NCBI GenBank assembly: GCA_021815445.1
Contig: JAKAGM010000002.1
Coordinates: forward strand, 225,345 to 289,344
DNA length: 64,000 bases
Direction: 5' to 3'
From: a bacterium
Lineage (GTDB): Bacteria; Patescibacteriota; Patescibacteriia; UBA10025
The notes beneath the pieces were generated by a model, which saw nothing but the letters and a program-made list of their open reading frames with translations, did not search any database and was not told the DNA's origin. Below are positions 30,129 through 50,501 of the stretch, piece by piece (position 1 is the first letter of the stretch; each line of letters starts with the position of its first letter). The position numbers were made by a program, and so were the translations under genes.

Positions 30129-31145
30129 TTAGAGTGTTGTGATTGGTCGGGACTGTACGATATAGAATTTACCTTTTTCGAAGGCCCACTCTATGTCCTG
30201 AGGGAATTTGTAGTGTTTTTCTATTGAGAGACAAAGTGAGGCAATCTCCATTATCTGTTTGCCGGTGAGTTTTTGTTTGTCGCGCTTTACCTTCGGTACG
30301 GCGACCAGCTTTGATCCGCTCGCCCCTTTTTTGACTATCATGTCTTTTTGCGACGAGACATTAATATCGAGGATGGCGCCGGTTCTTTTGTCAAAAATGT
30401 ACGTATCGGGGGTTATCCTTCCCGAGACGATTGATTCACCTTGGCCCCATCCGGCCTCTAGCACCATCTGATCGCGATCTTTCGTCACGGGATGCGCGGT
30501 AAAAGTTATGCCTGAAATTTCAGAGCTCACCATTTTTTGGACTACGACGGCGACGGACACTTTCTGCTTGTGCATTTTTTTCTCGAAGCGGTAAAAAATT
30601 GCGCGCGGGGTAAAAAGGGACGACCAGCATGTTTTGATCATGCCCAAAAGTTTGCTGCGCGTGACGAAGAGATAGCTCTCAAGCTCGCCGGCCCATGATG
30701 CCACGGAGGAGTCCTCAGCTGTTGCTGACGAACGGACGGCGACAAACGGCGCGCCGAGCTTGTCGAAATCAGCCAGAAACTCCCCGCCCAAGTCTTCTGG
30801 AAATTTTGCCAGGCGTATTTCATCGCGGAGCTCGTGCGATGCCCTGTCAACGGATGAGATATCCTTCGGATTCACCTTGTGAAGCCACTTGTCTATCTCG
30901 ACGTCTATGTCGGTCTCCTCAATGAACCGTTCAAAAGCGTCAGCAAGCACGACGAATCCCGGCGGGACGGGGATTTTTGCCTGGGTCATTTCACCAAGCG
31001 ACGCGCCTTTACCGCCTGCTATTGCCACGTTCTTTTTTGATATTTTAGAAAAGGGGAGAGAGTAGATCATAGGACAATGATAGTATAGCATATGGCTTAT
31101 GGCGAATAGAATGCATGGAACCTGCCGGAGTTTGACGAAGGCCAT
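30129..31145 (-). CDS. Stand-alone PEP synthase/PPDK N-terminal ATP-binding (ATP-grasp, PPDK_N) domain protein
   Basis: FSKISKKNVAIAGGKGASLGEM matches PpsA N-terminal nucleotide-binding motif; 338 aa with no His swivel or PEP-binding domain. Confidence 0.75.
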   Translation of the reverse strand: MAFVKLRQVPCILFAISHMLYYHCPMIYSLPFSKISKKNVAIAGGKGASLGEMTQAKIPVPPGFVVLADAFERFIEETDIDVEIDKWLHKVNPKDISSVDRASHELRDEIRLAKFPEDLGGEFLADFDKLGAPFVAVRSSATAEDSSVASWAGELESYLFVTRSKLLGMIKTCWSSLFTPRAIFYRFEKKMHKQKVSVAVVVQKMVSSEISGITFTAHPVTKDRDQMVLEAGWGQGESIVSGRITPDTYIFDKRTGAILDINVSSQKDMIVKKGASGSKLVAVPKVKRDKQKLTGKQIMEIASLCLSIEKHYKFPQDIEWAFEKGKFYIVQSRPITTL

Positions 31146-31196
31146 GAGCCGTGATAGGGTAACTCTCCAAAACAGGGCCCTTTTCAGGAGGATAAC

Positions 31197-31679
31197 ATGA
31201 AGTTTCCTTTAGCAATCGAGCTGGTGTCATTCAGCCATGCCAACGCTGAGGCGGCTGGGGTATATCCATTCTGTTCGCCAGACAGCAGAACCTTCCAGCA
31301 CATTTTCGATGTGCGGTATTTGCCGAATCCGTTCAATGAGCCGACTCTGCGCGATTTGAACGGACTGGACAAGGCGGTGCGGCAATATGTGCTCCAAAGT
31401 CTATCGACGCACCTCTGGACCTTGATGAGCGAGGTTGTCCGCACGTTGCTCAAAAAGGCGGCAGATGAGCCGGCCGATGCCGCGCCTCTGACTGTCCGGT
31501 TCTGCTTCGGATGTACCGGCGGAAAACACAGGTCAGTCGCTCTTGCCGCAGAGTTTCACGATTGGCTGATGAACACTCACGGTGATGAATGTCTGTCTAT
31601 CTCAATCCGCCATCTGGCGCTTGAGACTCTCGGTGTCACGACACCGCCACTTGGCCAGCCCACAGGGGCAATCGTCTGA
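31197..31679 (+). CDS. RapZ (YvcJ/YhbJ) C-terminal domain-only protein
   Basis: FDVRYLPNPFNEPTLRDLNGLDKAVRQYV and FGCTGGKHRSVALAAEF match RapZ C-terminal domain; N-terminal P-loop kinase domain absent. Confidence 0.7.
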   Translation: MKFPLAIELVSFSHANAEAAGVYPFCSPDSRTFQHIFDVRYLPNPFNEPTLRDLNGLDKAVRQYVLQSLSTHLWTLMSEVVRTLLKKAADEPADAAPLTVRFCFGCTGGKHRSVALAAEFHDWLMNTHGDECLSISIRHLALETLGVTTPPLGQPTGAIV

Positions 31680-48864: not shown

Positions 48865-48902
48865 TGGTCGTCGTTTGGGTTGCGGCGATTTTTTGAGCTG
48901 TC

Positions 48903-50501
48903 TTAAGAGATTTTTCGTATCACGCCGTTTGTTGCATCAACCATTACTTTGTCCCCGTCTTTCAGTATTTTATCCGCGCCCGGAACGCCGACGATGCACG
49001 GCGTACGAAGTTCCCGAGCCACAATAGCTGTGTGGCAGGTGAGTCCTCCGGATTCGCTGACGAGGGCGGCAGCTTTTTTCATGGCAGGAACGAGGTTCGG
49101 GTTCGTATTATGCGCGACGAGAATATCGCCTTTATGCATCTTTCCCATATCTTCGGGGATGTTGATGATTTTTACTGTTCCCCGCACTTTCCCGGGGCAT
49201 GCCGGTGTGCCCGACAGTTCATCAGTCTTGTGTAGGTGCAATTTCTCTTTATGGATCCGTTGAAAAAGCTTTTTGGCGCGATTGCCGCTCACGATGTTAT
49301 GACTGTGACGGTCGATATACGCGAGCGCAAAAAGCTGCCGCTGGTTGAGCTCATGGACGTTAAACTTTCTGTGGAGCAATGCGGGTACGATCTCGCTGGT
49401 CTTCATTGCCCATAGCTGGGCGATGGTGAGGCCGAGCCGCTTTCCGATTTCACGCAACAGCGGGTCGTACCCGTACATGCCATGGTAGATTGTTTCTTTC
49501 CGGAACCCTTTAATAAAGACCATCTGCTGCGCGAGATAGAGGAGTTTGCGCAGTCGCGGCGTGAGCGAAAGTTCCCCGGCGAGCACCCGCTGTGTATGCA
49601 GGAGCCGCAAGCGTTCAGCCGCCATCTTCCTCGCCATACTGCGCGGTGATGCCGCGCTGCGCATGAGCTGTTGCCACCGCTCAAGATATTCGCTCACGGG
49701 TGTCGCCGGCCCGCGGTACTGGTAATTGAGCCAGCAATATTTCCGATGGTGCGCGGTGATGGCACGGACCAATGCAGAATTTTTAACCCTGAGTTTTCCA
49801 AGTATGTGGTTGATGCGGGATGTCCTGAAGGTGTTTCGCGCGAACTGATTATCGTCTATCTTGACCGCTATGTTCAGGAAATCTTTTTCTTCGCGCGTTA
49901 TTGTGCTTTCCTGCCGGGGAGTGGTGAGGATGCTGAATACATCCGCGATGTGCCTCGGACTTCCGCACATTTTAAGATGCTGGTTGAGTTCATCCCATAT
50001 ACCTTTGGTTACGCGCTCATTTTCTGCATCAGCCAACCAGCTCACTGATGCGCCGTAGCCATTTTGCTTCCCGTGGGGAATCAGGCATGCTTTATACAGT
50101 GCGATAAGCTGATTGTCGGTTTTTTCGTTGAGTCGGCTTGTCAGTATCCGCTTTGACGCGCGCACAAAGTCTTTTGACCATCGCTCTACTTTAGCTATCC
50201 ATCGCAGGGCCCAGTCAGGATCCCGCAGCATCTTCGTGGCAAGGAAATCTGCCTGGGCGTCAAATTCTTTCCGCAGAAAGTACATCCGGCAAAAATCTCC
50301 CTCGAGGTACGAGAAGTAATGAGTGATATGGTTTCCGAGCGCCGCCTGGGGCCATTTCCATACCATGTACTCGGTCGGCTCGCTCATAAAAAAAACGCTC
50401 GTCTGAGCAACCTCAGCCGTACACGCCCATACTTGCCTGTAGGGAAGATTTTTCATAACGGTACAGATGGTATTTTCCCTCTTTTTTCGCAAAAAAGTCA
50501 A
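48903..50501 (-). CDS. PEP-utilizer swivel-domain paralog 9 (532 aa)
   Basis: C-terminal TPACPGKVRGTV..ESGGLTCHTAIVARELRTPCIVGVPGADKILKDGDKVMVDATNGVIRKI. Confidence 0.7.
   Translation of the reverse strand: MTFLRKKRENTICTVMKNLPYRQVWACTAEVAQTSVFFMSEPTEYMVWKWPQAALGNHITHYFSYLEGDFCRMYFLRKEFDAQADFLATKMLRDPDWALRWIAKVERWSKDFVRASKRILTSRLNEKTDNQLIALYKACLIPHGKQNGYGASVSWLADAENERVTKGIWDELNQHLKMCGSPRHIADVFSILTTPRQESTITREEKDFLNIAVKIDDNQFARNTFRTSRINHILGKLRVKNSALVRAITAHHRKYCWLNYQYRGPATPVSEYLERWQQLMRSAASPRSMARKMAAERLRLLHTQRVLAGELSLTPRLRKLLYLAQQMVFIKGFRKETIYHGMYGYDPLLREIGKRLGLTIAQLWAMKTSEIVPALLHRKFNVHELNQRQLFALAYIDRHSHNIVSGNRAKKLFQRIHKEKLHLHKTDELSGTPACPGKVRGTVKIINIPEDMGKMHKGDILVAHNTNPNLVPAMKKAAALVSESGGLTCHTAIVARELRTPCIVGVPGADKILKDGDKVMVDATNGVIRKIS

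Follow-up and report, generated by a model that had tools for sequence, protein, structure and literature searches.

A candidate hub-and-spoke dikinase system of CPR bacteria, with one stand-alone ATP-grasp subunit and nine histidine-swivel paralogs

We propose that a stand-alone ATP-grasp protein and nine paralogous proteins, each carrying a C-terminal histidine swivel domain, probably form a hub-and-spoke, two-component system of small-molecule dikinases of the RPH/HpeHI type. Two-component homologues of RPH are already characterised: PpsAB, CreHI and HpeHI are dikinases that need both components and cannot do without the swivel His (PMC12167813). These 1:1 pairs overturn the suggestion of a preliminary description, made from the sequence alone, that a separated ATP-binding domain was undescribed. 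What is new is the one-to-many array, its spread through CPR bacteria and DPANN archaea, the atypical HADs and His phosphatases that recur as its partners, and the existence of giant fusions. We found no published description of a one-to-many split kinase in CPR or DPANN.

Results

Organisation of the locus

The window (the whole stretch of DNA analysed, 64,000 nucleotides) comes from a tiny symbiotic Patescibacteria/CPR bacterium. All nine H-type ORFs are present on the minus strand (Table 1), and each protein ends in a PF00391 PEP-utilizers domain (E 1e-16 to 2e-26). HMM searches of the nine gave no match to PF01326 or PF02896, so that they have neither an ATP-grasp of their own nor a PEP/pyruvate TIM barrel, and the sole additional domain is the N-terminal HAD of 33688-35805. 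The nine-way alignment shows no variation in the catalytic His or the GG.T(S/C)H motif, and the shared blocks LYAEIGRR.G and KY.WLNYQY.GP can be seen in it. On the nine genes and their swivel domains, the lack of an ATP-grasp and a TIM barrel, the shared blocks, and the separate gene that encodes a PpsA/PPDK ATP-binding domain and nothing else, the preliminary description was accurate. Its picture of nine consecutive genes with 4-nt overlaps needs correction in one respect: such overlaps are found when the longest ORFs are taken (35802-35805, 38698-38701, 45893-45896 and 47335-47338), but the genes are not strictly consecutive: this tightly packed operon has four others between them, namely a RAYT transposase, a His-phosphatase-family gene, an APH-type kinase and a class I/II aminotransferase. 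Housekeeping genes surround the operon.

Table 1. Genes of the ATP-grasp and histidine-swivel locus (window coordinates)
Gene	Coordinates	Strand	Product and matches	Start in public gene call
Hub	30129..31145	-	ATP-grasp subunit, I-type, PPDK_N only; PF01326 E 8e-95, no other domain	31070 (probable), 313 aa
RapZ-like	31197..31679	+	RapZ C-terminal-domain-like protein, 160 aa; PF22740 E 3e-21; NF003828, C-terminal part only	
Hypothetical	31944..32585	+	conserved hypothetical, 213 aa, between ATP-grasp gene and array	
His phosphatase-like	32760..33668	+	divergent histidine-phosphatase-superfamily protein, ~300 aa, RHG motif; weak PF00300 match	
W1	33688..35805	-	705 aa; HAD (residues 1-200) fused to long H-type module (RIF-BD-like domain + swivel); PF00702/PF13419 + PF00391	
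W2	35802..36887	-	short H-type module, 361 aa; PF00391 E 4e-22	
RAYT	36891..37475	-	REP-associated tyrosine transposase (RAYT/IS200-like); PF01797; NF047646, 121 bits vs cut-off 80	
W3	37481..38701	-	short H-type module, 406 aa; PF00391 E 3e-23	
W4	38698..40317	-	long H-type module; PF00391 E 4e-23; N-domain HMM at residues 30-413	40227 (probable), 509 aa
His phosphatase	40229..40939	-	histidine phosphatase superfamily protein, 236 aa, inside operon; PF00300 E 2e-10	
APH	40954..41946	-	APH-family small-molecule kinase, 330 aa; PF01636 E 7e-31	
W5	41957..43027	-	short H-type module, 356 aa; PF00391 E 4e-26	
Aminotransferase	43055..44272	-	class I/II PLP aminotransferase, 405 aa, inside operon; PF00155 E 2e-51	
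W6	44277..45896	-	long H-type module, 539-aa ORF; PF00391 E 4e-26; N-domain HMM at residues 50-416	45776, 499 aa
W7	45893..47338	-	long H-type module, 481 aa; PF00391 E 2e-26; N-domain HMM matches	
W8	47335..48864	-	long H-type module, 509-aa ORF; PF00391 E 7e-26	48828, 497 aa
W9	48903..50501	-	long H-type module	50456, 517 aa

Among the interleaved genes, the aminotransferase exceeds the cut-off of its model (NF005744, 542 bits vs 389) and also heads the Kerfeldbacteria array (synteny in L003 and L004; L numbers denote loci of other genomes). The closest models to the APH-family kinase are of the homoserine kinase type, below cut-off (NF003558, 98 bits vs 271). The RAYT gene, separated from its neighbours by gaps of 3-5 nt, is probably a passenger; no REP family was found within the window. 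A search of nine cluster proteins against the PADLOC-DB defence models gave no match at E <= 1e-3.

The hub gene lies outside the operon, 2.5 kb away, with three opposite-strand genes between. The RapZ-like gene is divergent from it. The conserved hypothetical protein matched no family in HMM searches and has a homologue at the equivalent position in L005 (phmmer). The His-phosphatase-like gene converges on the end of the array and is 60% identical to its L005 orthologue at the same position; relatives with the RH[GED] motif adjoin arrays in L031, L035, L047, L057 and L088.

Tandem paralogs in metagenome-assembled genomes are a classic source of collapse and expansion errors, and the preliminary description had raised the possibility of an artefact. 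We reject both this and a set of decaying pseudogenes as having a negligible chance of being correct. The repeated 149-nt 3' segments share just 64-73% DNA identity, none of the nine ORFs is disrupted or has lost the catalytic His, and the same gene order occurs in a 359-kb NCBI MAG contig and in an independent Logan assembly. Syntenic arrays of other genomes carry 1:1 orthologues, and the predicted folds for both length classes are of high confidence.

The ATP-grasp subunit

The hub matches PpsA (8a8e, 1e-68), the ATP-grasp of RPH (5hv6, 1e-59) and HpeI (9goj, 3e-51). Its ATP site is intact, with conserved equivalents of RPH K22, R117 and E297; T136 is replaced by Ser. Identity to stand-alone orthologues of other CPR genomes is 54-71%, and hubs across CPR share 54-87%, far above the swivel domains (mean 46%) and the N-domains (mean 18%).

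The H-type subunits

The H subunits comprise six long and three short proteins of 356-705 aa. For the short protein W5, AF2 predicts a fold with a pLDDT of 95.4, for which the best Foldseek match is RPH (5fbu, E 1.6e-11), and RPH is the only structural match to the fold of the substrate domain. The paralogs are therefore RPH-type proteins in which a helical substrate-binding domain precedes a C-terminal His swivel, the domain order that the preliminary description had assigned to them. For the second active site, K316/R319/K320, which do not vary within the W9 family, align by profile with the RPH R666/K670 region, with K316 on R666 and K320 on K670. An Arg of this motif is present without exception in the nine paralogs and throughout the short class. 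In RPH, the R666A substitution abolishes rifampin phosphorylation (PMC4844700). By the same profile alignment, E667 of RPH has no conserved Glu counterpart.

W5, as type member of a conserved short class, has full-length orthologues (33-40% identity) in many CPR and DPANN genomes. The other two short proteins align with the profile of this class (A4) by hhalign, W3 over its full length (E 2e-40) and W2 over 297 columns (E 2e-34). W9, which opens the array, belongs to the best-conserved subfamily, and W8 has orthologues in Kerfeldbacteria, L006, L021, L013 and L014. Orthologues in different genomes are far closer than paralogs in the same genome (59% for W9 and its Kerfeldbacteria counterpart K1, 41% for W8 and K2, 60% for W1 and K8), which favours distinct functions for the paralogs. 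Given the 18% identity of the N-domains, some of them may bind macromolecules or have lost activity.

The HAD of W1 stands as a separate upstream gene in L005, and the two are thus a fusion/fission pair. Like the other array-linked HADs, it retains the nucleophile Asp and lacks the Asp+2 general acid; a simple "kinase plus phosphatase" reading may therefore be wrong. The HADs, one of them fused to an H module, could instead fit a scheme in which the swivel proteins are not small-molecule kinases but serve other proteins as phosphohistidine carriers or regulators, in the manner of PTS Enzyme I towards HPr, or pass phosphate from His to a HAD Asp. His-phosphatase-superfamily proteins, which recur beside arrays, would also suit this scheme, as the superfamily includes the phospho-His phosphatase SixA. 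A regulatory precedent exists in VadK of M. tuberculosis, a PPDK-derived His autokinase (PMC13400623). However, VadK and Enzyme I differ in having fused ATP or PEP domains and no RIF-BD-like domain, whereas the N-domains here share both the RPH substrate-binding fold and the phosphate-positioning basic motif, and no HPr-like or receiver protein was present among the loci examined. We consider a protein-directed role distinctly improbable.

Linkage, fusions and distribution

Syntenic arrays occur in Kerfeldbacteria and in many further CPR and DPANN lineages, and the W9 and W5 subfamilies are conserved at full length across distant CPR phyla and DPANN archaea. In each of seven PPDK_N-centred loci, 1-4 swivel-only genes lie within 10 kb and a second PPDK_N or ATP-grasp is absent. 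PPDK_N is found in or adjoining arrays in L008, L011, L024, L025, L027, L041, L043 and L077, and hub-to-H ratios in other genomes span 1:1 to 1:8 or more. In natural fusions the link is covalent. A Woesearchaeota ORF of 3,761 aa (L032; 0 stops, 0 Ns) encodes one ATP-grasp followed by eight modules, and further fusions join one PPDK_N to four modules (P0367), two (P0438) or one (P0373 and P0452). Action of one ATP-grasp in trans with many modules, as the preliminary description had supposed, is well supported by this linkage and these fusions.

It is also conceivable that the array and the ATP-grasp are not partners. The ATP-grasp would then belong to another process, such as a T4SS-like cluster or a split PEP synthase, and a different donor would charge the H proteins. 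In the window PPDK_N stands apart from the operon, beyond the opposite-strand genes, and its best sequence match is PEP synthase. In six related loci (L005, L006, L007, L008, L087 and L090) PPDK_N is co-oriented with a T4SS-like cluster and lies directly before a ~460-aa gene and PrgI/TraC/VirB4-like genes, the gap to the next gene being 0-6 nt or an overlap in most of them and ~140 nt in L008. Because of this adjacency the hub may have an additional or different role. Against a separate affiliation stand the independent fusions and the loci in which PPDK_N is embedded in or abuts arrays without T4SS genes (L011, L024, L025, L027, L041, L043, L088 and L089); moreover, the window shows no T4SS adjacency, and the scan of the cluster proteins revealed no PEP/pyruvate TIM barrel. 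That the hub serves something other than the array is, in our judgement, very improbable.

Comparison with characterised systems

The closest architectural parallels are HpeHI (Rhodococcus), CreHI (Corynebacterium), the phenylphosphate synthase PpsAB (Thauera/Aromatoleum) and AcvAB, which have the same split: a stand-alone ATP-grasp polypeptide of ~35-40 kDa, and an H subunit with an RPH-type substrate domain and a C-terminal His swivel. The window also shares their phosphate-positioning basic residues. HpeHI-type systems are 1:1 adjacent gene pairs that act on phenolic compounds in free-living degraders, whereas here one hub, outside the operon, faces nine H subunits, the hosts are CPR/DPANN symbionts, and an aminotransferase and phosphatase-like proteins accompany the array. 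HpeH has been shown to exchange phosphate between product and substrate. Their H subunits are ~600-640 aa long and ~45% identical to one another, compared with 356-705 aa and ~18% in the substrate domain in the window. Distance from PpsA/CreH/HpeH was judged through the PRK08296.x models; these match the swivel region only, at 41-97 bits vs cut-offs of 578-730.

With PpsA and PPDK, the same three-site swivelling chemistry would be expected. The ATP-grasp and swivel are closest in sequence to archaeal-type PpsA (8a8e, 1e-68 and 1e-40), but the PF02896 TIM barrel is absent from all ten window proteins, the substrate domain has a different fold, and the PEP synthase models TIGR01418 and NF005057 match partially (64-130 bits vs cut-offs of 598-740). 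The annotation "PEP synthase" in CPR and DPANN genomes is therefore misleading. PTS Enzyme I, which has an HPr-binding helical subdomain inserted in its swivel domain and a PEP-binding TIM barrel, was also considered and rejected: alignment is confined to the swivel core, and TIGR01417 scores 26-44 bits vs a cut-off of 342.

RPH itself (5FBS, 5FBT, 5FBU, 5HV1) combines three domains in one chain of ~865 aa, whereas the window ATP-grasp is a separate gene. The window swivel motif is PpsA-like (GG-x-T-S/C-H), that of RPH is GGLMTH, and nothing in the window points to rifamycin as a substrate. The kinship does raise the question of whether the array is a proto-resistome, a battery of RPH-like enzymes each inactivating one drug or xenobiotic and protecting an epibiont from antibiotics of its host or neighbours; inactivation of such compounds, or biosynthesis, was the role envisaged in the preliminary description. 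The one protein to which the substrate domain is structurally related, RPH, is an antibiotic kinase, the operon contains an APH-family kinase, and the very fast divergence of the N-domains resembles an arms race. Stogios et al. called the wider family a possible proto-resistome, and rph-like matches have already been counted in a CPR resistome survey (PMC8651080). However, all paralogs score far under the RPH equivalog cut-offs (32-65 bits vs 999 and 1700 for NF041857 and NF000283, matching the swivel and adjacent region only), and the characterised split members serve catabolism rather than resistance. The recurrent array partners (aminotransferase, HAD, His-phosphatase-like proteins, PfkB, PTA, hexapeptide transferase) are metabolic and not efflux pumps or regulators, and the full-length conservation of W9 and W5 fits common metabolites better than niche drugs. 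With these partners and the housekeeping surroundings, the context does not support the role envisaged earlier, and we regard a proto-resistome as unlikely.

Discussion

The mechanism that we propose for this hub-and-spoke system is modelled on RPH and HpeHI. ATP would be bound by the single ATP-grasp protein (30129-31070), and its β-phosphate would be transferred to the swivel His of whichever H-type subunit docks, with release of AMP and Pi. The phospho-His swivel would then swing back to its own RIF-binding-domain-like pocket, where the Arg/Lys motif would position the phosphate for transfer to a bound small molecule. We infer both the dikinase stoichiometry and the small-molecule nature of the acceptors. 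Because the pockets of the nine H subunits are very different, nine different acceptors are most likely. The aminotransferase, the APH-type kinase, the two His-phosphatase-family proteins and the atypical HAD probably make or process the phospho-compounds.

An analogy in logic, not in homology, is offered by the fatty acid kinase FakA, in which one ATP-using subunit is common to several paralogous FakB substrate-binding proteins and activates scavenged molecules. FakA is a Dak-type kinase that transfers phosphate directly, with no phospho-His swivel, and FakB is not catalytic. For the present system, the conservation of orthologous subfamilies across CPR and DPANN indicates metabolism, and we favour a role in activating or trapping metabolites that an organism of little biosynthetic capacity scavenges, over one in drug resistance.

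A broader reading, which we offer tentatively as a possibility, is that CPR bacteria and DPANN archaea share an unrecognised phosphoryl-distribution network, in which one highly conserved ATP-grasp "charger" would serve up to ~10 interchangeable His-swivel enzymes. In some archaea these enzymes would have become joined in a polydikinase of at least 3,700 aa. The network would include the atypical HADs that lack the general-acid Asp, together with novel His-phosphatase-like proteins, and might operate by a His-to-Asp phosphorelay onto HAD domains instead of by simple kinase/phosphatase pairs. If this broader reading is true, ultra-small symbionts would have in the network a major route for trapping, activating or interconverting the metabolites that they scavenge from their hosts.

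The array and its putative ATP-grasp hub

The preliminary description recognized nine minus-strand paralogs, W1 to W9, and a separate gene encoding only an ATP-binding domain. All nine reading frames are present (Table), and a C-terminal swivel domain is found in each of them (PF00391, 'PEP-utilising enzyme, mobile domain', E 1e-16 to 2e-26). As had been proposed, PF01326 and the PEP/pyruvate TIM barrel are missing from all nine, and W1 alone has a further Pfam domain, its HAD fold; according to Pfam, NCBIfam and the predicted folds, neither an ATP-grasp domain nor a TIM barrel is hidden in any N-terminal region. 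In a nine-way alignment, neither the catalytic His nor the GG.T(S/C)H motif varies, and the shared N-terminal sequence blocks described earlier reappear. Below, the stand-alone PPDK_N protein is called the hub, and the H subunits, each a substrate domain followed by a swivel domain, are called spokes or modules.

The operon is tight and spans ~17 kb, adjacent genes lying 3-38 nt apart or overlapping by 4 nt when the longest-ORF starts are used. The genes had been described as consecutive and overlapping; the overlaps hold with these starts, but the run of minus-strand genes is interleaved with four others, which encode a class I/II PLP aminotransferase, an APH-family kinase, a His-phosphatase-family protein and a REP-associated tyrosine transposase (RAYT). 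A search of the whole 64-kb window for a REP-like repeat family to match the RAYT found none, and promoter and terminator scans of the operon gave results no better than shuffled sequence.

Features of the window, with the lengths of public gene calls that start later than the longest ORF
Feature	Position	Strand	Description	Public call
Helicase-like gene	48-1973	+	superfamily 1; AAA_11/AAA_12	
Direct repeat	2639-2684, 2788-2833		46 nt, 80% identical	
tRNA-Ser	3126-3214			
SIR2_2-domain gene	3291-4493	+		
Sigma-70 gene	11750-12943			
Group I intron match	13346-13558	+	RF00028, full model length; 54 bits (gathering score 50)	
ABC transporter gene	13948-15708			
Hub	30129-31145	-	PF01326 (PPDK_N) alone, E 8e-95	313 aa
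W1	33688-35805	-	long class; N-terminal HAD, 35206-35805	
W2	35802-36887	-	short class	
RAYT gene	36891-37475	-	3-5 nt gaps either side	
W3	37481-38701	-	short class	
W4	38698-40317	-	long class	509 aa
W5	41957-43027	-	short class	
W6	44277-45896	-	long class	499 aa
W7	45893-47338	-	long class	
W8	47335-48864	-	long class	497 aa
W9	48903-50501	-	long class	517 aa
Phosphorylase-family gene	58184-59689	+	501 aa; thymidine/AMP phosphorylase; Glycos_trans_3N, Glycos_transf_3, PYNP_C	

An assembly artefact or a set of pseudogenes is ruled out by the intact reading frames, the invariant His, the divergence of the copies, the presence of the locus in independent assemblies and its syntenic relatives. 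The test for an artefact was negative: the repeated 3' (swivel) segments are only 64-73% identical in DNA, and a 359-kb MAG contig at NCBI (GCA_027341205.1) and an independent Logan assembly both contain the identical locus. The window comes from a member of the Patescibacteria (CPR). Synteny extends to Kerfeldbacteria, whose contigs have an array of an aminotransferase gene, seven swivel genes and then a 707-aa HAD-swivel fusion. Orthologues in these genomes (59% identity to W9, 41% to W8 and 60% to W1) are much more alike than the paralogs of any one genome, so the duplications are old and the copies are maintained separately. The sampled loci lend no support to a fixed, universal set of some nine orthologous subfamilies, a set that would hint at defined substrates: N-domain BLAST across 168 modules, a sample biased towards W9-like loci, gave clear orthologues only for W1, W2, W8 and W9, those of W5 having come from a separate search.

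Elsewhere in the window, a group I intron match sits in the 1-kb gap between the sigma-70 and ABC transporter genes, with no tRNA or rRNA host gene detected in that gap. The helicase-like and SIR2_2-domain genes flank a tRNA-Ser gene with a direct repeat just upstream of it; together they may form a small island, either of defence genes or mobile.

One probable hub, many spokes

The preliminary description inferred that one ATP-grasp protein may act in trans with many modules. Linkage, fusions and a conservation gradient, all read from sequence, back such an arrangement. Seven PPDK_N-centred loci were chosen regardless of their neighbours and are the only unbiased sample; around each of the seven stand-alone PPDK_N orthologues, one to four PF00391-only genes lie within 10 kb, and a second PPDK_N is present at none of them. 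In one of the compared loci, L088, the operon order is a short swivel gene, a His-phosphatase-like gene, PPDK_N and a swivel gene. A GTDB-wide scan also found PPDK_N within or next to the arrays of Komeili-, Buchanan-, Falkow- and Saccharibacteria and of one Nanoarchaeota single-cell genome.

Natural fusions place one hub and several spokes in a single chain. In Candidatus Woesearchaeota (JAFGGS010000004.1, L032:500-11785, plus strand), one 3,761-aa ORF with no stop codons and no Ns encodes one PPDK_N with eight modules behind it (three short, five long). A library of 1.84 billion proteins contains P0367, which has 2,309 aa, four swivel domains and a PPDK_N in its interior, P0438, which has 1,217 aa, PPDK_N and two modules, and RPH-like (rifampin phosphotransferase-like) single chains of 790-842 aa. 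Further multi-module fusions are P0364 (1,500 aa), L023 (1,106 aa) and L034 (912 aa); the two-module fusion P0392 has a weak match to an intein-splicing domain.

Conservation falls from hub to pocket: hub identity across CPR is 54-87%, and the means among the nine paralogs are 46% for swivel domains and 18% for substrate domains, which is the pattern expected if many spokes dock one hub and bind different ligands. The hub matches PpsA (8a8e, 1e-68), RPH's ATP-grasp domain (5hv6, 1e-59) and HpeI (9goj, 3e-51), and retains the equivalents of RPH K22, R117 and E297.

In six CPR relatives (L005:10001-15385, L006, L007, L008:3433-8836, L087 and L090), the hub gene is followed by a T4SS-like cluster comprising a ~460-aa gene with no Pfam match, PrgI-like, TraC-like and VirB4-like genes, and then pilin genes and RadA. 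The hub and the ~460-aa gene overlap or are 0-6 nt apart in most of these loci (~140 nt in L008); this conserved synteny was not found in the window, L088 or L089. That the ~460-aa protein is a swivel-less H subunit was rejected on the basis of its having neither an hhalign relationship to the dikinase substrate domain nor a Pfam match. The adjacency may hint at an additional role of the hub.

H-subunit folds and conserved residues

The AlphaFold2 model of W9 (67 homologues, pLDDT 94.9) predicts an all-helical domain at residues ~62-375, together with a small beta-alpha-beta unit and the swivel domain. The W9-family profile aligns with RPH residues 613-866, with the family-invariant K316 and K320 falling on RPH R666 and K670, residues that keep the phosphate in place during the second transfer; with R666A, rifampin is no longer phosphorylated (Stogios et al. 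2016, PMC4844700). An Arg in this motif is shared by every one of the nine window paralogs. With only the W9 substrate domain as a single-sequence query, 826 cluster representatives were reached at E <= 1e-3.

W2, W3 and W5 (356-406 aa) form a conserved short class, distinct from the other six, long-class subunits. Its members still have the beta-alpha-beta unit at the N terminus and the helices at the C terminus, but ~160 residues of helical 'arms' are missing. Full-length W5 orthologues (33-40% identity) occur across many CPR and DPANN genomes, W3 and W2 match the short-class profile (E 2e-40 and 2e-34), and the predicted model of W5 (pLDDT 95.4) again has RPH as its top structural match.

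Distribution and recurrent partner genes

Many Patescibacteria lineages (Nealson-, Falkow-, Buchanan-, Komeili-, Saccharibacteria and others) have 3-10 modules in tandem, as do DPANN archaea (Woese-, Nano- and Micrarchaeota), with the array counts biased by the use of a W9-type profile to pick loci in the GTDB-wide scan. A few array-bearing MAGs are labelled with other phyla, labels and bins being taken as given.

HAD proteins adjoin arrays in at least 10 loci or, as in W1, are fused to a module. All those examined (W1, L004, L005, L007, L025, L032, L035, L036, L037 and L042) retain the motif-I nucleophile Asp, motif-II Ser, motif-III Lys and motif-IV Asp, and all lack Asp+2, the position being N, G, S, Y or M. 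Asp+2 is the general acid typical of HAD phosphatases, and its absence makes these proteins unlikely to be ordinary phosphomonoesterases. Such atypical HADs leave room for His-to-Asp transfer or for action on labile phospho-products. The HAD gene of L032 lies just downstream of the fusion on the opposite strand.

A further recurrent partner is a divergent RH[GED]-motif protein of the His-phosphatase superfamily, ~300 aa long, found in the window and in L005 (60% identity), L031, L035, L047, L057 and L088. Among the DPANN-type loci L024, L026, L029, L034 and L035, a PTA/PTB-family phosphate acyltransferase gene adjoins arrays in five (E ~1e-86 to 1e-89 in the two scanned), a hexapeptide-repeat transferase recurs in four and an uncharacterized 362-419-aa protein in three. 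Other neighbours include PfkB, inositol-monophosphatase-like, RIO1-like and flavokinase-fusion genes; an EamA-flavokinase fusion gene lies within the array at L090:3368-4651. At L089:6338-9179, HicAB and ParE/YafQ-like toxin-antitoxin genes are interleaved with swivel genes, beside a 56-aa swivel fragment. An anti-phage defence system was rejected, there being no PADLOC match at E <= 1e-3 among nine cluster proteins.

Comparison with characterized systems

The preliminary description knew of no system with a separated ATP-binding domain, which is no longer true: PpsAB, CreHI and HpeHI are experimentally characterized two-component RPH homologues (PMC12167813). Those systems are 1:1 adjacent pairs acting on phenolic substrates in free-living degraders, whereas the window system is not 1:1, and its proteins fall outside the sequence definitions of these groups and of RPH. 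We found no account in the literature of one-to-many arrays, the short class, phosphatase-like partners or giant fusions in CPR or DPANN; a CPR resistome survey simply counted 'rph' matches (PMC8651080), and in a CPR metabolism study PEP synthase calls needed additional domain checks. The split RPH-type dikinase is already known, and the window array is a variant of it.

Proposed mechanism and role

By homology with RPH, HpeHI, CreHI and PpsAB, we propose that the hub would draw on ATP to charge the swivel His of whichever H subunit is docked, releasing AMP and Pi. The phosphorylated swivel domain would then return to its own pocket, which resembles the RPH substrate domain (RIF-BD), and transfer the phosphate to a bound small molecule. 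Nine divergent pockets would imply nine acceptors. Inactivation of antibiotics, one role suggested in the preliminary description, is disfavoured by the metabolic neighbourhood and by the conservation of subfamilies across phyla, and on the same basis we favour the activation or trapping of scavenged metabolites.

The PTA genes beside DPANN arrays prompted consideration of the reverse reaction, in which ATP would be made from acyl phosphates. This was rejected on thermodynamic grounds, as acetyl-phosphate (~-43 kJ/mol) is unable to drive the conversion of AMP and Pi to ATP. A forward route from carboxylate to acyl-phosphate to acyl-CoA is pure speculation. The phosphorylase-family gene ~8 kb from the array is presumably of the kind that serves AMP salvage in archaea and CPR, in which case its product could, speculatively, consume AMP released by the dikinase.

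Implications

CPR and DPANN make up a large part of microbial diversity and have genomes of ~1 Mb with few recognizable pathways. That ~13 kb of coding sequence should be devoted to nine paralogs of one enzyme type, in arrays conserved in both radiations, implies important physiology that current metabolic reconstructions miss. Such genes are usually annotated as 'PEP synthase', 'pyruvate, water dikinase' or 'rph', and inferences on gluconeogenesis and resistomes are skewed as a result. The newly recognized two-component dikinase subfamily is here widened from 1:1 pairs to a design of one hub and many spokes, and the natural fusions and the minimal ~240-aa substrate domain of the short class offer tools for studying how swivel domains choose their partners. 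Knowing the substrates could show what symbionts draw from their hosts.
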